32,000 nt of DNA from Methanococcus maripaludis (GCF_002945325.1 NZ_CP026606.1:1080001-1112000); one strand, 5' to 3'; positions 7,186-18,906 are shown, counted from the first letter of the stretch. The notes: generated from the sequence alone by a model not told the origin. Translations and numbers: made by a program.

Positions 7186-7307
7186 GAATCCACCAGTTTA
7201 TATTACAATAAAATAATAGTATCTTATTATTAAAAATAACATATTAAAAAATAACACATAAAACCGTATATTCAAATTAATAAATTAATATTCCCAAAAT
7301 AAAAACG

Positions 7308-7381
7308 TGCCAAGGGGGTGATTCGAACACCCGACAACTGGATCTTCAGTCCAGCGTTCTCCCAGGCTGAACTACCTTGGC
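7308..7381 (-). tRNA. tRNA-Phe (GAA)
   Basis: The reverse complement is GCCAAGGTAGTTCAGCCTGGGAGAACGCTGGACTGAAGATCCAGTTGTCGGGTGTTCGAATCACCCCCTTGGCA. All four stems pair. The anticodon loop is CTGAAGA. No CCA is encoded. Confidence 0.95.
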
Positions 7382-7419
7382 AATTTCCAGTTAAATCCAC
7401 AATTAAGCATATCTTTTAT

Positions 7420-7430
7420 GATATAAATAC
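7420..7430 (-). promoter_or_regulatory. TATA box candidate for tRNA-Phe
   Basis: The minus strand reads GTATTTATATC, about 40-50 bp upstream of the mature 5' end at 7381. Confidence 0.4.
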
Positions 7431-7444
7431 TTTACTACGAAAGG

Positions 7445-7452
7445 TTTATATA
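7445..7452 (+). promoter_or_regulatory. TATA box candidate for the plus-strand tRNA cluster
   Basis: A consensus TTTATATA lies 46 bp upstream of the tRNA-Asn 5' end. It is divergent from the tRNA-Phe promoter. Confidence 0.45.
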
Positions 7453-7497
7453 TCAGAATGTTGATTGTTATTGTGCGGTCAAGTAGTATGACAGCGA

Positions 7498-7574
7498 GCC
7501 TCCTTAGCTCAGTAGGTAGCAGCGACGGACTGTTAATCCGTAGGTCGCAGGTTCGAGCCCTGCAGGAGGCGCCA
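7498..7574 (+). tRNA. tRNA-Asn (GTT), CCA encoded
   Basis: GCCTCCT...ACGGA-CTGTTAA-TCCGT...GCAGG-TTCGAGC-CCTGC-AGGAGGC-G-CCA. The acceptor, anticodon and T stems pair. The D stem has one 13:22 mismatch. Confidence 0.93.
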
Positions 7575-7612
7575 TTTTTTCTAACAAATTATTCACTCTC
7601 AAGACCGGGTAC

Positions 7613-7687
7613 GGGCCCGTAGCTCAGGCTGGTTAGAGTGCTCGGCTCATAACCGAGTGGTCATGGGTTCAAATCCCATCGGGCCCA
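7613..7687 (+). tRNA. tRNA with CAT anticodon: Met by code, more likely archaeal tRNA-Ile2 (C34 to agmatidine)
   Basis: GGGCCCG-TA-GCTC-AGGCTGGTTA-GAGT-G-CTCGG-CTCATAA-CCGAG-TGGTC-ATGGG-TTCAAAT-CCCAT-CGGGCCC-A. The cloverleaf is clean. The GGGCCCG acceptor stem is the isoleucine-type stem in archaea, as far as I recall. Confidence 0.9.
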
Positions 7688-7701
7688 TATATTTGAAACA
7701 A

Positions 7702-7776
7702 GCTCCAGTGGTGTAGTCCGGCCAATCATCCGGCCCTTTCGAGGCCGGGACTCGGGTTCAAATCCCGGCTGGAGCA
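7702..7776 (+). tRNA. tRNA-Glu (TTC)
   Basis: GCTCCAG-TG-GTGTAGTCCGGCCAATCAT-C-CGGCC-CTTTCGA-GGCCG-...-TTCAAAT-...-CTGGAGC-A. This is the typical archaeal Glu D-arm. No CCA is encoded. Confidence 0.93.
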
Positions 7777-7789
7777 TTTTATTTTAAGT

Positions 7790-7874
7790 GCAGGGGTTGT
7801 CGAGCCTGGCCAAAGATGCAGGACTTAGAATCCTGTCCAGTAGTGGTTCCAGGGTTCAAATCCCTGCCCCTGCA
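7790..7874 (+). tRNA. tRNA-Leu (TAG), long variable arm
   Basis: GCAGGGG...CAGGA-CTTAGAA-TCCTG, then the variable arm TCCAGTAGTGGTT, then CCAGGG-TTCAAAT-CCCTG-CCCCTGC-A. Confidence 0.93.
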
Positions 7875-7902
7875 TTATAGTAATATTAAAAAACGATATT
7901 GT

Positions 7903-7978
7903 GGCCGTGGTAGGGTAGTGGCTATCCTGAGGGACTGTGGATCCCTCGACCCGGGTTCGATTCCCGGTCTCGGCCCCA
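7903..7978 (+). tRNA. tRNA-His (GTG) with encoded G-1 and CCA
   Basis: G(-1)-GCCGTGG...AGGGA-CTGTGGA-TCCCT...CCGGG-TTCGATT-CCCGG-TCTCGGC-C-CCA. G-1 sits opposite C73, the His identity feature. Confidence 0.9.
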
Positions 7979-8092: not shown

Positions 8093-8656
8093 ATGAAAAT
8101 AATCGGGATACTCGGCATTCAGGGCGACATTGAAGAACACGAAGATGCAGTTAAAAAAATAAACTGCATCCCTAAACGGATAAGAACGGTAGATGATTTA
8201 GAAGGAATAGACGCATTAATAATTCCCGGCGGAGAAAGTACCACAATTGGAAAATTGATGGTAAGTTATGGATTTATCGATAAAATTAGAAATTTAAAAA
8301 TCCCGATACTTGGAACTTGTGCAGGAATGGTTCTTTTATCTAAAGGAACTGGAAAAGAGCAGCCATTACTTGAAATGTTGAATGTGACGATAAAAAGAAA
8401 TGCATACGGTAGTCAAAAAGATAGTTTTGAAAAAGAAATAGATTTAGGCGGAAAAAAAATAAATGCAGTATTTATTCGAGCACCCCAAGTTGGGGAGATT
8501 CTCTCAAAAGACGTTGAAATCATTTCAAAAGACGATGAAAATATTGTAGGAATAAAAGAAGGAAACATAATGGCAATATCATTTCACCCGGAACTTTCAG
8601 ATGACGGGGTTATTGCATATGAATACTTTTTGAAAAATATTGTAGAAAAAAAATAA
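8093..8656 (+). CDS. pdxT: Pyridoxal 5'-phosphate synthase glutaminase subunit
   Basis: [31 protein letters not shown] and FHPE carry the class-I glutamine amidotransferase triad in the PdxT arrangement. The RBS GGTGA precedes the ATG. Confidence 0.9.
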
Positions 8657-8657
8657 A

Positions 8658-11600
8658 TTAATAATTCATATTCATTTTTCTTTTTTTAATGAGTTCTGCT
8701 ATTTCTGAACTTACATAAGGATTTGAACTCGTTTCAAAGGTTTTTAATTCATCAAATAAATAATCAGGTATTTTATCGATTCCTTTTATTTTAAAGAATT
8801 TTATCAGGAAGAGTTTAGAATCGTCATTTGATGTTTTAAGATACTCAATAATTTGTTTGCTGACCTTTTCAAGCATTTCAAGGTTATCCTCAAAGTTGCA
8901 TGAGTAAATTACTTCAAGAGCTTTTTTAAAGATTATCCATTTTTTATCGTCACTTATTAATTCTAAAACTTTTTTAGAAATTTCAGGATGCTCTGTGCAT
9001 TTAACATTTAATTTTACCATGCTGGCAAGCGTTTCTAACGCTTCAACCTGTATTTGCGGTTCATTTTCATCGAGAAGTTTTGAAATAAGTGGTAAGTATT
9101 CTTCAAAATTTTCAGCATTTAAAACTGATTCTTCAAACCAAGAAGTTTTTTTAGTTATTATCACTTTTAAACATTCAAGTCCCTTATACGCTAATAACGG
9201 GTATTTCTCATTGAAAATTATTTTGAAAATGTTATTAAGTACTGATTTTTTGTATTTTCCAAGTTCGTACATTAAATTAGTATCACCGGATTTTAAATTG
9301 GCTTTAAAAATATCCAGTAAAATTATCGTAATAATTAGTGAATTTCTTTCAGAGTTAAGGATGCTAAATTTCATAAAATCAAAGAATTCAAGATCCACGT
9401 AGTTTAGTGTTTTATAATCATGTGTTAACAGGTATTTTAGTGAAAAATAAATCTCTTGCCAGGTTTGATTTTTGATATCGACAACTTCTGACTCAAAGTT
9501 ATTTTCCAAGATATAATTTTCAAGCTCCTGTTTTTCTTCAAATATTTTTTTAGATTCTTCTGTATCGATTTTTTCAAGTATTTTTAAAGATAGTGATGTG
9601 ATTTTCGGGGTTGCTTGCGGATATATCACAAACTCTTTTATTTTTCGAGTAATTCTTTCGCTGATTTTATAGCCTTCCAAAATGTATTCAAAAATTTCAT
9701 TTACTGCATTTATACGCCTTGAAATTATCATTTCGTTTAAATTCCCATATATAATTGCTTCACGCGGTTTTGGAACTTCTGAAAATTTATTTTTGAGTCT
9801 ATTTAATAACTCGCCTGCGATTTCAAAGTCTTTTTTAAGTTTAAATAATTCATGAAATAAGTCAAAATATTCTTCAGTTAATTCCTGCATTTCAATGAAT
9901 TCTAGGATTTTTACGATATTTTCGCTATCTTCTGATCTAATGTAACTTTTTAATTTTACTTTAAGTCTGATTACTACTGATTTATTAAGTTCAGGATGAT
10001 TCAGCGCTTTTTCAAGTGTTTTAAACTTTTCTTCCAGATTTTTAGATTCATAACCAATTAATTCTTTTGATTCTGGAATCATTTTTAAAGTATCTTCGCA
10101 GATTGTTCGAATAATAGTAAAATGGTCTGTAAAATATTTTGTTGCAAGGGCACCTTGTAATTTAGAACTTATTTCGGAATTTTTCAAAATTTCAGGATAT
10201 TTTTTGATTAATTTGTTATAAAAAATTGCACAATCCTGCCTTATTTCCATATTTGGATCATCAAGACATGCAATGGATTCGATTATTAATTTTTTTGGAA
10301 TTTTAAATCCTCTTTCAAGAATGATCTGAAGAATCCATGCGCCAATAGATCTTACTAGATACACTCGATCGGCAAGAATTGTCTGTATTAAATCTTGTTT
10401 ATAATCTATTTCGCTTGGAAATGCATACAGCAAATTTCCAATTTTTTTTCCAATTTCAAACCTATAAAGCCAGTCTTCGTTTTTAAACTCTTTTTCAAGG
10501 TTTTTAAACTGTTCGATTGCCCGGTTTTTTGGAAGTTCACTGTATTCGATCATGAGGTCTTCATCAAAATACATATTTTTTTCAGGGCTTAATAAATCAT
10601 AACGCCCCAAATTTACAAGCAATCTCGTTCCACTATAATAATTTAGGTTGTTTTTTCTGAATAGCTTTCCAAGGTCATTATTTTCAAGAACTTTTTCAAT
10701 ACGTAAATTCAATTCATCATTATTTAACAAAACAAAAGAATTCAGCATTTCAAATCCATAAAAGCTTATTAAGTAGTTTTCGTGTGTTAAATATTCTTTA
10801 ACTGGATTTTCGATTAGTTTTAAACATTTTTTAGTATCCATTTCTAAATTCATGTCAATTGTTAGGTATGAAAAAGCAAGCATTGCATTTATTGCAGTAA
10901 TTTCATCCGATCCATATAATTTATCACTGATTAAAGAATGCACATCTAATTCGTTTTTTGATTGAATTAAATTTTTTAATGACTTTTGGTGTTTTTTAAG
11001 AGTAATTGCAGAAAGCAGTGCGATTCTATAATCTGCATCGTCCACATATTCTAAAATAAATAATAATTCGTCATTTTTAATCTCATTTTTTAGATTAAGA
11101 ATTACAAGTTTTTTAAGTAAATCATTTTCAGCATTTAGGTTATCTTCATTAGCATCTGGCGATTCTATCAAAAATTTTAAGTCTTTAATAATTGATTTAG
11201 GAATGTTTTCAAATTCATCAAGTATTGCTTGAGACAAAATCCTCAAAAGTTCTGAGCGAGAATAAAGCGAAATCATCGAAAGTTCGGGAAGTGAGTTTTT
11301 AAGGTACCTTGGAGAGTGCATTGATACAAAACCAAGTACTAAAAGTGCCCGTGCAACTTCAAAATTATTTTTCGAGTATAACTTTGAATTATAATGAACT
11401 ACAAGGTTATCGATTACCTTTGGATTTATTGAATCAATAATCTGTCTTGAAAATTCTTTTACCAGGTGGTTTGAAAATTCAGTATTGATATAAACGTGTA
11501 TTAAAAGTTTTTCGGCTTTTTTAGGATATTTTAAAAGAATAACTTTTATGGAACTAAGTAAATTTAGTAAAACTGCGATATTTGGGTCCGAATTTAATAT

Positions 11601-11747
11601 CACAATTTTTTGCATTCTTTCGTCAAGTGCCTGTTCATCAAGCAATCCTAAAATTTTTGCAGCTTCTGTTTTATCTTTATAATTATCAGACTCAATATAT
11701 TTATCAAAAAGTGCTGCAAGGTCGTTTTTATCCGTGCTTTGGTACAT
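8658..11747 (-). CDS. Large HEAT/ARM-like alpha-solenoid protein (1029 aa), paralog A
   Basis: A 3.1-kb stop-free frame in AT-rich DNA is very unlikely by chance. HEAT-like units include DRVYLVRSIGAWILQIIL and LDDPNMEIRQDCAIFYNKL. It is collinear with the upstream gene. Its ATG lies 2 nt after the upstream stop (TGA-AT-ATG). Confidence 0.8.
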   Translation of the reverse strand: MYQSTDKNDLAALFDKYIESDNYKDKTEAAKILGLLDEQALDERMQKIVILNSDPNIAVLLNLLSSIKVILLKYPKKAEKLLIHVYINTEFSNHLVKEFSRQIIDSINPKVIDNLVVHYNSKLYSKNNFEVARALLVLGFVSMHSPRYLKNSLPELSMISLYSRSELLRILSQAILDEFENIPKSIIKDLKFLIESPDANEDNLNAENDLLKKLVILNLKNEIKNDELLFILEYVDDADYRIALLSAITLKKHQKSLKNLIQSKNELDVHSLISDKLYGSDEITAINAMLAFSYLTIDMNLEMDTKKCLKLIENPVKEYLTHENYLISFYGFEMLNSFVLLNNDELNLRIEKVLENNDLGKLFRKNNLNYYSGTRLLVNLGRYDLLSPEKNMYFDEDLMIEYSELPKNRAIEQFKNLEKEFKNEDWLYRFEIGKKIGNLLYAFPSEIDYKQDLIQTILADRVYLVRSIGAWILQIILERGFKIPKKLIIESIACLDDPNMEIRQDCAIFYNKLIKKYPEILKNSEISSKLQGALATKYFTDHFTIIRTICEDTLKMIPESKELIGYESKNLEEKFKTLEKALNHPELNKSVVIRLKVKLKSYIRSEDSENIVKILEFIEMQELTEEYFDLFHELFKLKKDFEIAGELLNRLKNKFSEVPKPREAIIYGNLNEMIISRRINAVNEIFEYILEGYKISERITRKIKEFVIYPQATPKITSLSLKILEKIDTEESKKIFEEKQELENYILENNFESEVVDIKNQTWQEIYFSLKYLLTHDYKTLNYVDLEFFDFMKFSILNSERNSLIITIILLDIFKANLKSGDTNLMYELGKYKKSVLNNIFKIIFNEKYPLLAYKGLECLKVIITKKTSWFEESVLNAENFEEYLPLISKLLDENEPQIQVEALETLASMVKLNVKCTEHPEISKKVLELISDDKKWIIFKKALEVIYSCNFEDNLEMLEKVSKQIIEYLKTSNDDSKLFLIKFFKIKGIDKIPDYLFDELKTFETSSNPYVSSEIAELIKKRKMNMNY

Positions 11748-11749
11748 AT

Positions 11750-14700
11750 TCAGCCCCTTAATTTGATTTTCATGGATTCTATTTCTTCAATATCTCTTTT
11801 AATATCGTAATTTTTAGAATTTTTCAGATTTAAAAGTTGAGCTACTAAATTGCTGTTTAATCTTGATATATCTTGAATTTTAAAGAATCTCAACAGTATT
11901 AACTTAGAGTCATCGTTTGAATTTTCGATTTTTTCAAGTAAAAGTTTGGAAAACCTGTTTAACATTTTTTCGTCCATTTCGTAATTTCCAAGTACCTTTA
12001 CAATTTTTTTGAAATTTTCCCAGTTTGATGTATCTAGCCGGTTTACAAGTTTTTCAAGAAACTCTGAGGATAAATCAAACGAATTTGAATTTTTGGCGTA
12101 ATAATTAAATGCATTTATAGTTTCCTCGAGTACTTTATCGTCAGGATAATCTAAAAGTGAATTTAAAAATAATGGCCAATTTTTACTTTTATTTTCAGAA
12201 ACATTGGTTATATTCCTTAATAACCATTCAGGTTTATGTTTAACAATTTCTACAGTTAATATAATTGCATTTTTTGATAATATTTCGTAATCGGTTGAAT
12301 AAATCAAATAATATAAATTTTCAAGGACTTTTGGATTATCTATATCAGGACTGTTTAATATATTTGAATTTGGGTCAGTTATAACATTTTTTAGGATTTT
12401 TAATATCATTGTTGTCAGGATTACTGATGGACGTTTTGAATAATCTGATAAAAAGTACAAAATATCGTTAAAATTAATGGATTGGTAGTCATATTCTGAA
12501 GTTTTATGCAGTTGGCTGCTTAATTTTACATAGAGCTCTTCAGTGGTCATTTTTTTAATGTTTTCATCAGATTTTTCTTTAATATCTTTTAAGTCGTTCA
12601 AATGAGTATCAAATTCTCTTTTTTCAAAAATCAGTCTTTTACTTTCGATATCTTTTTGTAAATTTAGTATATTTATGCAGAGGTCAGTCAGTTTTTCATC
12701 CCTGTACATTACTAAAATTTCCTTTATTTTAAGGCCTATACCGTTATTAATCTTAAATCCTTCATTTAAATACGTAATAATCTCTTCCAGCCCATCTTTT
12801 TTATATTCCGGGATAGGGTTATTCAGGCTGTTTAATATCCTGATTTCAAGAGGTTTTGGAATTAATTTGTACCTATTTTTTATGTTATTTAAAAAATAAT
12901 TCGCATCTTGATAAGTATCTTTCAATTTTACGAGTTCTTCCAAAAGATAGGAACAATCAACTTTTGATTCATGCGTTTTTAGGAATGTTAATACTTTTAA
13001 AATATTTTTTTCATCATTTTTTAGTATGTAACTATCAAGGTTTATTTTTAATTTTTCTAAAAATGCAGCAGAAGTTACCGGGTTTTCAAATAACTGTTCT
13101 GAATATAATTCCCCGCTTAGTTCCTCCTGAAACTTTTTTGGAGTATTTTCTAAATTTTTTAATATTTTATCCAGTATACTTTTTATCGCTATTTTGAAAG
13201 GAGGATAATTTTCATTTACGTAGTGACTCCCCAATATTGATTTAATTTTTGAAGCAGTGTTAAATTCAGTTAACAGTTCTGGACGTTTTTCCAGTAATTC
13301 ATTTAATAAAAGGTAATATTCAAACCTTAATTCCCAGTATGGACTGTTTAAATCGTGAATTACTTCTAAAATAATCCTTTCAGGAAGTTTTATGTTGTAT
13401 TTTACAAGTATTCGAAGTATCCATATTCCAATATTTCTTACAAGATATATTTCGTCATGGAGGATACTTTTTACAAGTTCAAAATTCATAAACTCTTTTG
13501 ATTCATCAAAATATAATGCACTTCCAATTTTTTTTGCCCCATTATATCGTTCAAGCCAGTAATCACTTTTAATATTCTTTTCGGCTGATTTTATGTAATG
13601 TTGGCGTTCTGTCGGGGCCATATACTGCATTTTTAATTCAAGAGACCGGATTAGATACGGATTTTTGTCAACTTCCGGCAAAGTATTATATTTTTCGGCC
13701 AAAAGAGGCATTCCAAAGTAGTAGCAAAGCGGATGTTCTTTCAATATATTTTCAAAAGGATAATTATCAAAAATTTCATCAATTTCTTCATCCAGATTCA
13801 ATTTTTCCATTTTGTGTAGCAAATAGAGAATGATTAAAGAGAATGCTTTTGAAATGTGGTCTTTTCCAGAAATATTCTTTTTTAAATAATAAAATATTTT
13901 TTCAAAATCCACGTTTTCAATTTCTAAATTTAAAGAATGGGTTATATCTAAAATTAAGGAATAAGAAATCAGCTGTTGAACATTGTTTGGATGTTTTTTG
14001 TAAAATTTTGAGAGTTGGTCTTGAAATATTAACGGATATTCTTCAAAATTTTTTTCAACTTTTAAAATATTATTTTGAAGGGATATGGCTGCAAGCAGTG
14101 TACAAAAATCGTTTTCAATTGATAAATACTTCAACAACTCATTTATTGTATTTTCATCGATTTCGTCTGAAACTGTAAGTCTGATCAATGATTTAGTGAT
14201 TTCAGCGCCGGTTTTTGATTTATTTAATGGTGTTATATCCATTTTTTTATTAAAAACGAGGTAGGAATATCTTAAAAAGTTTCTATTAAGTTCTGAAAAA
14301 TCGTCAAGGGTTCCAAGTGCAAGCAACTGTATTAATGCAGATGAATCATAAGTAGACGCCATTACAATCTCAGATAATGCTTTATCCAAATATTCCGGGC
14401 TGAATCTAGATATTAACGAAAGTAATATAACTGATTTTAATCTTTCTTCAGTATTTTTTGAATAAATTCCGTTTCGAAAGTGTTCAACGTGTCTTTCGAT
14501 TACTTCGGGTCCTAGTGCTTTTATTTCGTTTTTTGCATGTTCTGATAAAATATTATTTGAAAATTCGGTATTGTAGTAGATACAACCAATTAATTCGCTA
14601 AAAACTTCCGGAAATTTGTTTAAAATATTTGAAAAAGCAGTTATTAAATTTAGCCGTATTGAAATGTCATTTTCAAAAGTAAGGCTTAAAATATTATCCA

Positions 14701-14833
14701 TTCTACTTTTAATGTCGTTTATTCCGAGGTATCCCAATATTTTGGTCGATTCTGCTCTTTTTTTAATATCTTCTGAAGTAATATACTCATCAAATTTTTC
14801 TAACAATTCTTCTTTAGACAGTTCTCTATACAT
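11750..14833 (-). CDS. Large HEAT/ARM-like alpha-solenoid protein (~1027 aa), paralog B
   Basis: It is collinear with paralog A (YYNTEFSN, DEIYLVRNIGIWILRIL, PKPLE, SNDDSKLILLRFFKI). ATG 14833 has the RBS GGTGA (14842-14838) and aligns with MYQS... of paralog A. The track start 14866 is an upstream TTG. Confidence 0.8.
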   Translation of the reverse strand: MYRELSKEELLEKFDEYITSEDIKKRAESTKILGYLGINDIKSRMDNILSLTFENDISIRLNLITAFSNILNKFPEVFSELIGCIYYNTEFSNNILSEHAKNEIKALGPEVIERHVEHFRNGIYSKNTEERLKSVILLSLISRFSPEYLDKALSEIVMASTYDSSALIQLLALGTLDDFSELNRNFLRYSYLVFNKKMDITPLNKSKTGAEITKSLIRLTVSDEIDENTINELLKYLSIENDFCTLLAAISLQNNILKVEKNFEEYPLIFQDQLSKFYKKHPNNVQQLISYSLILDITHSLNLEIENVDFEKIFYYLKKNISGKDHISKAFSLIILYLLHKMEKLNLDEEIDEIFDNYPFENILKEHPLCYYFGMPLLAEKYNTLPEVDKNPYLIRSLELKMQYMAPTERQHYIKSAEKNIKSDYWLERYNGAKKIGSALYFDESKEFMNFELVKSILHDEIYLVRNIGIWILRILVKYNIKLPERIILEVIHDLNSPYWELRFEYYLLLNELLEKRPELLTEFNTASKIKSILGSHYVNENYPPFKIAIKSILDKILKNLENTPKKFQEELSGELYSEQLFENPVTSAAFLEKLKINLDSYILKNDEKNILKVLTFLKTHESKVDCSYLLEELVKLKDTYQDANYFLNNIKNRYKLIPKPLEIRILNSLNNPIPEYKKDGLEEIITYLNEGFKINNGIGLKIKEILVMYRDEKLTDLCINILNLQKDIESKRLIFEKREFDTHLNDLKDIKEKSDENIKKMTTEELYVKLSSQLHKTSEYDYQSINFNDILYFLSDYSKRPSVILTTMILKILKNVITDPNSNILNSPDIDNPKVLENLYYLIYSTDYEILSKNAIILTVEIVKHKPEWLLRNITNVSENKSKNWPLFLNSLLDYPDDKVLEETINAFNYYAKNSNSFDLSSEFLEKLVNRLDTSNWENFKKIVKVLGNYEMDEKMLNRFSKLLLEKIENSNDDSKLILLRFFKIQDISRLNSNLVAQLLNLKNSKNYDIKRDIEEIESMKIKLRG

Positions 14834-15109
14834 GGCTTCACCAAAAAAAGACTCAAATAAAATCAAAAATATCGAGTTAAAACTATCGTTATTACTTTCT
14901 CTTTTCCTACATATATCAACATTTCCATAATTTCTGTTTAAGGGCTGTTTTAAAAAATCCTTTAAAATATATTTTAGGCCAAAATCTCTTTAAAAAAGTC
15001 TTTTTAAGACATGGGTAATCACTATCAATTACTAATTTTGCTCAAATAATATCATTAATTATAAAGTATTACTTCTGAAATTATCTCGTAATGTATATAT
15101 AATTTTTAA

Positions 15110-16189
<1,080 letters not shown>

Positions 16190-17075: not shown

Positions 17076-17848
17076 TTAGTTTTAAAAAAATGTCAATATT
17101 TCTGACATTTTTGTTTACCTTTTTACTATTTTTATCGATAAGTTCACTTATTTTAGTTCCAAAGTTTGAAGATGTTTTGAGTTCAATTTTTAATCCAGAA
17201 ATGATTTATTCACTTAAAGTATCGTTATATTCCTCTTTAATTTCAACAGGAATTGTTTTGGGTTTTTCAATACCTACAGGCTACGCCATATCGAGGTATT
17301 CATTTCCTGGAAAAAGCATTGTAAAAGCAATACTTGATTTACCTATAGCTTTTCCTGAACTTGTACTGGGCCTTGCACTTTTACTTTTATTCGGGCAAAC
17401 TTTTATCGGAGACATTTTAGAATTTTTTGGAATAAAAGTAGTATTTACTAAACTAGGAATAGTTGTAGCTCAGATTTTTACCGCACTTCCCTATGCAATA
17501 AGGATAGTATGTTCTACTTTTCAGGATATTAATCCAAGATACGAACTTGTTTCAAGAAGCCTTGGATACAGCGAGTTTGAAACTTTTAAAAATGTTACCC
17601 TGCCAATGGCAAGAAGCGGGATTTTTGCTTCATCTATAATCGCGTTTGCAAGGTGTATGGGTACGTTTGGAACGGTTTTGATGCTTGCAGGTGGAACGTA
17701 CATGTACACAGAAACGCTTCCAATAACTTTGTACCTAAACATGTCATACGGTAATCTTGGAATGGCGATTTCAAGCGGAATTGTGCTTTTAATGATATCA
17801 TTTATCGCGATTTTGATATTTGAGAAATACGAAGGAGGGAAATTTTGA
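17066..17848 (+). CDS. Molybdate/tungstate ABC transporter permease
   Basis: It has six predicted TM helices and an EAA-like loop (ELVSRSLGYSEFETFKNVTLPMARSGI). It overlaps the modA stop by 10 nt. An alternative start is ATG 17090. Confidence 0.8.
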   Translation: MQLISFKKMSIFLTFLFTFLLFLSISSLILVPKFEDVLSSIFNPEMIYSLKVSLYSSLISTGIVLGFSIPTGYAISRYSFPGKSIVKAILDLPIAFPELVLGLALLLLFGQTFIGDILEFFGIKVVFTKLGIVVAQIFTALPYAIRIVCSTFQDINPRYELVSRSLGYSEFETFKNVTLPMARSGIFASSIIAFARCMGTFGTVLMLAGGTYMYTETLPITLYLNMSYGNLGMAISSGIVLLMISFIAILIFEKYEGGKF

Positions 17849-18906
17849 GTTTCGTTAAAATTGAAAACTTGAATATCAATCTGGGCGAATTTAAGTTAGA
17901 AGACGTTAATTTAAGCGTTGAAAAAGGAGATTATGTAACAATAATCGGGCCAACAGGTAGTGGAAAATCTATTCTTTTAGAAACTGCACTTGGATTTTAT
18001 ACTCCTGAAACTGGAAAGATATTTTTGGAAGAAAAAGAGATAACAAACTTAAATCCTGAAAAAAGAGATATAAGTATAATTTATCAAGATTATGCACTGT
18101 TTCCGCACATGACGGTTTATGAAAATATTGAATACGGTCTTAAAAAACGGTTGAATGACAAAAAAGCCATAAAAGAGGAAATTCTTCAAATAACAAAAAT
18201 GCTTGGAATTGATCATCTGTTAAACCGAAAACCTGAAACACTGAGTGGTGGGGAAATGCAGAGGGCATCCATTGCAAGAGGGCTTATCATAAAGCCAAAA
18301 ATCCTGTTTATGGACGAACCATTCAGTGCTCTGGATGTTAAAACTAAAGAAAAGATAAGAATTCTTGTTAAAACTGCGATAAAAAAATATGGAACAACGG
18401 TACTCCATGTAACACACGATTTTGAAGATATTTGGAGTCTTGCAGATAAAGTCTTGATAATGAAGGGCGGTAGGGTTTATCAGTACGGAACTCCTGAAGA
18501 AGTATTTTCAAATCCTTCATCTGAAATTGTTGCAGATTTTGTTGGTACAAACATTTTGGATTCAAAAGTGGAAGAAATATCTGGAAATATTTCAATTTTG
18601 GATGTTTCCGGAGTAAAAATATATTCTTCAGACATTGCAAAAGTCGGCGAGAATGTAAAAGTATCAATAAGGCCCGAAAATATAATCGTTGCTTTAAAGT
18701 GTTTTGACAGCTCCGCAAAAAACGTATTCAATGGAAAAGTTACTGAAATTAAAAAAAGAGGACACTTGGTCTGGTTAACACTGGATATCGGCGGTGTTGA
18801 TTTAAAAGTACTTGTTACACCAAATTCTCTTGAAGCTTTGGAAATTGAAGAAAATAAAAATTTATGTGTGATGTTTAAAGCAACAGGCGTTAAAATAATA
18901 AGATAA
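17845..18906 (+). CDS. Molybdate/tungstate ABC transporter ATP-binding protein with C-terminal TOBE/Mop-like domain
   Basis: It carries Walker A GPTGSGKS, signature LSGGEMQR, Walker B ILFMDEPFSALD and an H-loop VTHD, followed by a ~120-aa beta-rich tail. The TTG start follows the RBS GGAGGG and overlaps the permease stop. Confidence 0.88.
   Translation: MSFVKIENLNINLGEFKLEDVNLSVEKGDYVTIIGPTGSGKSILLETALGFYTPETGKIFLEEKEITNLNPEKRDISIIYQDYALFPHMTVYENIEYGLKKRLNDKKAIKEEILQITKMLGIDHLLNRKPETLSGGEMQRASIARGLIIKPKILFMDEPFSALDVKTKEKIRILVKTAIKKYGTTVLHVTHDFEDIWSLADKVLIMKGGRVYQYGTPEEVFSNPSSEIVADFVGTNILDSKVEEISGNISILDVSGVKIYSSDIAKVGENVKVSIRPENIIVALKCFDSSAKNVFNGKVTEIKKRGHLVWLTLDIGGVDLKVLVTPNSLEALEIEENKNLCVMFKATGVKIIR

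Follow-up and report, generated by a model that had tools for sequence, protein, structure and literature searches.

The chromosome of Methanococcus maripaludis carries, in a segment of 32,000 nucleotides (GCF_002945325.1, NZ_CP026606.1:1080001-1112000; the window hereafter), two adjacent minus-strand genes for proteins of about 1030 amino acids (aa), and these raise the question of what kind of proteins they encode and whether each of them needs the other. A sequence-only reading of the window had taken the genes, which fill 8658-14866, for an old whole-gene duplication kept as an obligate pair, most simply a heteromeric alpha-solenoid scaffold. Both open reading frames (ORFs) are present as described, and are termed A (the upstream paralog) and B (the downstream paralog) here; over this 6.2-kb region the DNA is 97.3% identical to that of strain S2. 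The pair is neither ancient nor obligate, and we consider it reasonably probable that A and B are non-catalytic cytoplasmic HEAT scaffolds or adaptors, B being ancestral-like and A diverged, which cooperate or are partly redundant within an accessory and separable module.

The comparison of A with B by BLASTP gives one full-length collinear alignment with 306 identities in 1047 positions (29%) and 53% positives, and its E-value of 1e-106 over the full length places the similarity far above chance. This bears out the claim of collinear, end-to-end paralogs arising from a whole-gene duplication, and the blocks that had been paired by eye hold as well. The 29 identities in 75 ungapped N-terminal positions are exact, starting from residue 86 in both A and B; the central pairing starts at residue 460 in both proteins, with 20 of 44 positions identical; the shared PKP(R/L)E block appears as PKPRE and PKPLE, each beginning at residue 659; and the C-terminal SNDDSKL block begins at residue 973 in B and 972 in A. 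No Walker A or CxxC motif and no Cys/His cluster is found in A or B, the 5 and 7 cysteines of the two proteins being scattered, and neither has a convincing transmembrane segment (maximum 19-residue Kyte-Doolittle mean of 1.26 and 1.62), as had been stated.

The fold of both proteins was modelled with AlphaFold2 on a 15-sequence alignment. The model of A (predicted local distance difference test score, pLDDT, 80.7; predicted template-modelling score, pTM, 0.69) is all-alpha with about 58-60 helices, and that of B (pLDDT 85, pTM 0.76) has about 60; the only beta element is a two-residue beta-bridge near residues 657 and 694, and there is no beta domain. Both models show tandem antiparallel two-helix repeats of about 40-47 aa in a continuous solenoid, the arrangement that marks the HEAT superfamily. 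The canonical HEAT signature with its conserved Asp and Arg (D..(V/L)R..a...L) is also present, as evident from D460, R466 and R429, which are invariant in 13 family members. These residues, together with W426, G437 and W471, are the family-invariant positions inside residues 420-540 of B, where DRVYLVRSIGAWIL, DWLYRFEIGKKIGNL and DDPNMEIR fall at residues 425-503. The other best-conserved regions are residues 1-180, residues 600-720 with the PKPxE / EG(F/Y)K beta-bridge insert, and the C-terminal block SNDDSKL...FFKI. At the level of single window proteins the Pfam scores are sub-threshold only (HEAT, 15.1 bits against a cut-off of 23.5); across the 13 family members, HEAT_2 is found in six (best E-value 1.3e-10), HEAT in four (9e-10) and Cnd1 in three (3.6e-9). 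A HEAT-like alpha-solenoid of about 25 helical hairpins is thus supported as the predicted fold of both A and B by the models, the family-level Pfam scores and the structural searches with Foldseek.

Foldseek against the PDB matched hundreds of long HEAT solenoids, many of them with a probability of 1.00, including CAND1, Kap121p, Kap95p, transportin, SF3B1, huntingtin and mTOR; the best matches are CAND1 and Kap121 for A, and CAND1 and karyopherins for B. In these alignments of more than 1000 columns, the E-values lie between 5e-10 and 1e-7, at 10-14% identity and template-modelling (TM) scores of 0.15-0.2. CAND1 (PDB 4a0c, 7z8v, 1u6g) and the beta-karyopherins (Kap121p, 3w3t; Kap95p, 2bku; transportin, 2z5j) are similar in size to A and B (about 1000-1200 aa), and like them form continuous arrays of about 20-27 helical hairpins, are acidic and lack a catalytic domain; the low identities and TM-scores, however, go with a different overall superhelix. 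There is no Pfam match to the importin-beta domain IBN_N at E<=1, with one family member weakly matching the transportin TPR-like domain (1.4e-3), and no Pfam match to the TIP120 domain in A or B, where the Foldseek match to CAND1 has 11-13% identity and a TM-score of about 0.16. To our knowledge, Ran is absent from Methanococcales and cullins are absent from archaea. As judged from the models, the resemblance to CAND1 and the karyopherins is one of fold class and not of family membership.

No characterised family was matched by other routes. The NCBIfam scan of A and B gave no match, nor did single-sequence phmmer searches of PDB sequences with either protein, and the PADLOC scan was without a confident match. 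Profile searches of the PDB with two alignments returned marginal generic HEAT matches only (2db0, CNOT1, alphaRep, transportin, YibA). Among these, the HEAT-like proteins of PBS-lyase type (the alphaRep parents, 2db0 of P. horikoshii and YibA of E. coli, 1oyz) match the A/B family weakly, covering residues about 14-70, 65-181 and 880-970 with E-values of only 0.005-0.7; they are short proteins of about 150-300 aa with few repeats, whereas the A/B family forms a 1000-aa continuous solenoid with conserved blocks of its own. That long solenoids are uncommon in archaea, as the earlier reading held, is backed by published figures: alpha-solenoids make up about 1/1200 proteins there, and are mostly short PBS-HEAT proteins, the commonest archaeal type (PMC3837014).

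The best Pfam matches to the central repeats of A and B are the C-terminal HEAT region of Cnd1/Ycs4 (PF12717) and Nipped-B_C (PF12830), and they bring up a chromosome-organisation factor akin to the condensin and cohesin HAWKs (Cnd1/Ycs4, Nipped-B), which would bind kleisin-SMC or DNA. Cnd1 reaches an E-value of 2.5e-4 on residues 442-583 of B (21.6 bits) and 4.8e-3 on A (17.4 bits), in addition to the far better score in another member given above, and Nipped-B_C reaches 1.8e-3 (18.8 bits). The M. igneus ortholog is named 'Condensin complex subunit 1 C-terminal domain-containing' in UniRef, a name that derives from its Cnd1 match, and human condensin II ranks 34th among the structural matches to A. 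The window proteins, however, stay below the gathering threshold (26.4 bits for both models), and the sub-threshold Cnd1 matches as well as the UniRef label are explained by the block of residues 420-540 having the most canonical HEAT repeats. Furthermore, the leading fold matches are CAND1 and karyopherins rather than HAWKs, the proteins are acidic (isoelectric point, pI, 5.5), no gene for SMC, kleisin (ScpA) or ScpB is found in eight neighbourhoods (the window and seven related loci), and dedicated searches have found no HAWKs in prokaryotes (bioRxiv 10.1101/2024.01.07.573240). The label 'condensin-like' is therefore not supported for A or B, and a HAWK-type role is extremely improbable.

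The age of the pair was assessed from its distribution, which rests on protein databases. An exhaustive HMMER profile search of 1.84 billion (1.84e9) cluster representatives recovered 25 proteins (E<=1e-3), of which several are fragments, and the named relatives belong to Methanococcus, Methanothermococcus sp. Ax23, Methanotorris igneus and M. formicicus. A broader profile added nothing further, its word filter of 8000 candidates saturating on these AT-rich sequences, and profile scans of GTDB contigs (with the alignment, then with a single protein) gave pattern matches with no locus confirmed. All 25 detectable members fall in Methanococcales, to which the family thus appears to be confined. 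Judged by gene neighbourhood, M. igneus, M. formicicus, Methanothermococcus Ax23 and the P0044 contig, a basal Methanococcus-like lineage, carry one copy each. In Ax23 the gene and pdxT converge, as B and pdxT do in the window, and the P0044 gene lies between wtpA and pdxT; since these single-copy genes occupy the pdxT-adjacent slot, the ancestral state was one gene at the same site, with the pair arising by tandem duplication in situ. M. vannielii has one gene at the syntenic slot (Mevan_0955), 44% identical to B and 29% to A. In a neighbour-joining tree (BLOSUM62 distances, 100 bootstraps), the A clade is monophyletic, B groups with the M. vannielii gene, and A and B together exclude P0044 and the other genera, each with a support of 100; the M. 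vannielii gene is sister to B of the divergent L006 lineage, which has an A, with a support of 98. The history is best read as a duplication within Methanococcus before the M. vannielii split, followed by the putative loss of A in M. vannielii. The supposition of an old duplication does not stand, and neither does that of two genes that always co-occur, given the four single-copy outgroup lineages, the B-type gene alone in M. vannielii and the damage described next.

Three independent lesions of A or B are seen among the strains. In strain S2, loss of one A from a homopolymer (Table 1) splits B into ORFs of 446 and 591 aa beside an intact A, and the S2-type 591-aa product is recorded in 117 collection blocks. 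The S2 ORFs for A and for the two parts of B fall at about 1594017-1600218 of BX950229. An A8 run stands at the identical position in A and B, and is a candidate contingency locus or slippage site. A 6-nt in-frame indel at 12192-12197 in A also separates the window strain from S2. KA1, X1, OS7 and related assemblies have a 939-aa A with an in-frame loss of 88 aa of the best-conserved block, which takes about two HEAT repeats including most of the family-invariant residues; in KA1, B is intact beside it. This allele occurs in 17 member sequences (KA1, X1, OS7, and metagenomic or Logan contigs; KA1 locus L004, 6001-8820), and its ORF stays open. Strain MIC1C10 has a 650-aa A fragment adjoining an intact B. 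A single intact copy would suffice for M. vannielii, S2 and every outgroup genus, and the genomes thus suggest that either copy is dispensable and the two are separable; genomes do routinely keep one paralog without the other, a pattern that the earlier reading had named as evidence against its own view.

The evolutionary rates of A and B were compared with those of their neighbours. The ratio of nonsynonymous to synonymous substitution (omega, dN/dS) of A is 0.13 against KA1 and 0.22 against L006, and that of B is 0.12, 0.21 and 0.31 against KA1, L006 and M. vannielii, respectively; for comparison, pdxT and the gene with the BpsA_C domain have values of 0.007-0.07, and wtpA of 0.11-0.24. Between the window and M. 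vannielii, B is 44% identical in protein as against 68-89% for 12 flanking proteins. A and B evolve several-fold faster than the flanking genes, and their substitution pattern is that of real genes under purifying but relaxed selection. In a relative-rate test with P0044 as the outgroup, A has 199 unique changes and B 132 (p=2e-4), yet the identities between M. maripaludis and L006 are similar for both (54% for A, 50% for B). This pattern, with near-equal divergence since the maripaludis/L006 split, indicates an early asymmetric divergence followed by constraint, B being probably the ancestral-like copy, closest to the single-copy orthologs, and A the faster-diverged one.

Such fast evolution, with omega above that of the housekeeping neighbours, three independent strain lesions, the loss of A in one species, a tiny phyletic range and a FYINK-rich, low-GC composition that fits drift under AT bias, would also be expected of a decaying or near-neutral lineage-specific pair that has little present function and is lost piecemeal. 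We consider this improbable, as omega of 0.12-0.31 over about 1000 codons indicates clear purifying selection, and ORFs of 3 kb with a GC content of 28% have been kept intact in lineages that share as little as 24-50% identity. The maintenance of 14 invariant residues and conserved blocks across three genera, the confident and well-packed models, and the KA1 deletion being in frame with the ORF otherwise kept further argue against decay.

Rapid divergence and polymorphism of presence and lesions at the strain level are also features of a defence or conflict component, for example a sensor solenoid, and insertion sequence (IS) elements lie near both Methanotorris loci. The PADLOC defence models (PADLOC-DB) gave nothing better than E=0.2, however, no effector domain is present, no linkage of the genes to defence systems or mobile elements was found, the GC content at third codon positions (GC3) of A and B equals that of the neighbours, and the site is a stable, syntenic core-genome position between housekeeping genes across genera; a part in defence is barely credible. 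The regional GC is 28%, and the low value is explained by the FYINK-rich composition and not by foreign origin. A foreign origin of A and B, considered separately, was rejected on the same GC3 as the neighbours and the synteny kept across genera.

The possibility that A and B form an obligate heteromeric solenoid of fixed stoichiometry, an ancestral homomer having become a heterodimer after duplication with both subunits required, was weighed against the arrangement of the genes. The junction TGA-AT-ATG was read exactly by the earlier reading (stop of A at 11752-11750, start of B at 11747-11745), and is preceded by a GGGG at 11757-11754 that resembles a Shine-Dalgarno (SD) motif; this tight spacing makes it probable that A and B share a transcript and that B is translated in coupling with A. 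The genes are adjacent in KA1, S2, L006 and Methanococcus sp. CF, and in every genome of the M. maripaludis clade and of L006 examined. Both copies are under purifying selection with nearly equal omega, and their within-clade divergence is alike. A homomer-to-heteromer transition of this kind has been proposed for the A-type and B-type HAWK HEAT proteins of eukaryotes (bioRxiv 10.1101/2024.01.07.573240). Against these stand the lone B of M. vannielii, the broken B with intact A of S2, the KA1-type A short of 88 aa and the 650-aa A of MIC1C10. The junction with its 2-nt spacer is identical in the window and KA1, but the spacer is longer in L006 (13 nt) and sp. CF (16 nt). A G-rich SD-like motif is present at every A-B spacer compared (window, KA1, L006, sp. 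CF), reading GAAGGG in L006. The spacers fit co-transcription, but close coupling is not a conserved feature. An obligate heteromer is unlikely, though A and B may form a heteromer where both are present.

A non-catalytic scaffold or adaptor remains the explanation that we favour; the absence of a Walker A motif, CxxC, a transmembrane segment and an enzyme domain underlies its non-catalytic and cytoplasmic character. An ancestral single gene convergent to pdxT would have been duplicated in tandem in Methanococcus before the M. vannielii split; B would have kept the ancestral-like sequence, while A would have diverged faster at first and then come under similar constraint. The long superhelical surface may hold a client or complex, with residues 1-180, 420-540 and 600-720 and the SNDDSKL...FFKI block providing the structural core and the binding sites. 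Several points weigh against this. The scaffold role is inferred from the predicted fold class alone, and solenoids of the HEAT-like kind also include enzymes (AlkD-type glycosylases) and proteins that bind nucleic acids. No partner gene conserved across genera is found in the neighbourhoods examined, and the literature yielded no expression, interaction or fitness data on the A/B locus. As to separability, transcriptional slippage at the A-run of S2 could restore some full-length B, and A was not found elsewhere in M. vannielii in searches of protein databases, with no genome scan behind this. Long-branch attraction on the neighbour-joining tree could inflate the apparent age of the duplication; the A and B topologies are mirrored in the L006 lineage, which argues against it.

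The coordinates of the locus are collected in Table 1. An alternative TTG start at 14866 would give A 1038 aa (11750..14866). A GGTGA SD-like motif precedes the ATG at 14833, and from this ATG, A begins in register with the MY(R/K/Q) N-termini of B and all orthologs, so that the 1027-aa protein is the better gene model.

Table 1. Features of the A/B locus in window coordinates
Feature	Position	Strand	Details
Gene B (downstream paralog)	8658..11747	-	1029 aa, ATG start, 121 kDa, pI 5.5
Gene A (upstream paralog)	11750..14833	-	1027 aa from ATG 14833, 121 kDa, pI 5.6
A/B junction	11745..11759	-	AAGGGG (SD-like), C, TGA stop of A, AT spacer, ATG start of B
B residues 420-540, most canonical HEAT repeats	10128..10490	-	DW..R...GK.IG.L, D..YLVR..G.W.L, DDP..E.R; from invariant columns and conservation profile
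A residues 420-540, homologous canonical HEAT block	13214..13576	-	from A/B alignment and conservation profile
A8 homopolymer in B	10442..10449	-	codons K434-K435; A7 in S2, one A lost, giving the split B
A8 homopolymer in A	13528..13535	-	gene position nt 1299-1306 (codons Lys434-Lys435), same position as in B
A segment deleted in the KA1/X1/OS7 allele	13295..13558	-	264 nt, residues 426-513, between 8-nt direct repeats ATTACTGG
Intergenic region between A and divergent wtpA	14834..15148	-	would hold the promoter and 5' region for A-B, from ORF layout and sequence
pdxT	8093..8656	+	convergent with B; NCBIfam TIGR03800, 8e-58; syntenic neighbour outside the operon

Domain scans of the window revealed no enzyme or client gene in the operon, in agreement with the earlier reading. 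The divergent neighbour of the A-B unit is wtpA, for a tungstate-binding protein, and the other genes of the window are housekeeping ones (a tRNA cluster, S8e, OTCase, PAN, SepF, a GTPase, AdoMet synthetase, ThiD/N). B and pdxT converge on stop codons that lie 1 nt apart (8656-8658), and the convergent adjacency to pdxT is found also in Methanothermococcus, the P0044 contig, M. vannielii, L006 and sp. CF. The two ends range elsewhere from a 4-nt overlap to a 25-nt gap (L001, 11084/11096; L006, 11117-11120; L007, 10069/10095; L010, 7487/7501; L011, 8093/8094). As these convergent stops nearly abut from Methanothermococcus to Methanococcus, the transcripts of B and pdxT must have 3' ends that overlap in antisense. 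Six tRNA genes (7307-7978) separate the BpsA_C-domain gene from pdxT, one of them on the minus strand (Phe) and five on the plus strand (Asn, Met, Glu, Leu, His); the tRNA cluster is all that an Rfam scan of the window detected.

A third protein of HEAT type is represented in the window by its C-terminal part, encoded at 1-906 on the plus strand (L003, 17536-17776) and some 7.7 kb away from B. It is 621 aa long in S2 and matches Adaptin_N at 5e-6 and, weakly, a Trans_reg_C-like winged helix at 2e-3; no sequence kinship of this protein to A or B is detectable. Downstream of wtpA, a gene for an ABC-transporter ATPase (ABC_tran and TOBE domains) is a single 353-aa ORF in S2 and the window (17845-18906) and two ORFs of 235 and 108 aa in KA1 (L004, 1929-2989), where it is a probable frameshift or pseudogene. 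The single HEAT gene of Methanotorris (L005, 5618-6553; L008, 12587-16857) lies near DDE-type IS transposases, of which M. formicicus has three copies, and in M. igneus is followed by a gene for an ATPase_2/MJ1010-like ATPase; there is no synteny between this position and the Methanococcus locus.

Archaea seldom have continuous HEAT solenoids of about 1000 aa, and A and B belong to a Methanococcales family without a name, a Pfam or NCBIfam model or a literature, which is unusual yet within a known fold class. No paper mentioning MMP1653-1655 was found in the literature searched, a random-barcode transposon sequencing (RB-TnSeq) preprint makes no mention of the A/B locus, and the sole match in the literature for M. 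maripaludis with HEAT repeat concerns haloarchaeal chemotaxis proteins. There is no evidence for a new kind of system: this is a typical lineage-specific, fast-evolving accessory gene family, and the finding does not bear on a long-standing open question. It is very improbable that a giant prokaryotic HEAT solenoid has gone from homomer to A/B heteromer and serves some large complex of Methanococcales (SMC-ScpA, proteasome/PAN or basic nucleic-acid-binding proteins) as its clamp, exchange factor or chaperone; if true, archaea outside the Asgard lineage would have evolved, independently, an analogue of the adaptor machinery of eukaryotes. Negative results of transposon sequencing (Tn-seq) or RB-TnSeq at the locus need care, as the standard laboratory strain S2 already has a broken B. 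The host is a genetically tractable model methanogen, and the natural alleles, namely the single-copy species, the frameshifted B of S2 and the repeat deletion in A, provide a ready-made dissection of each paralog.

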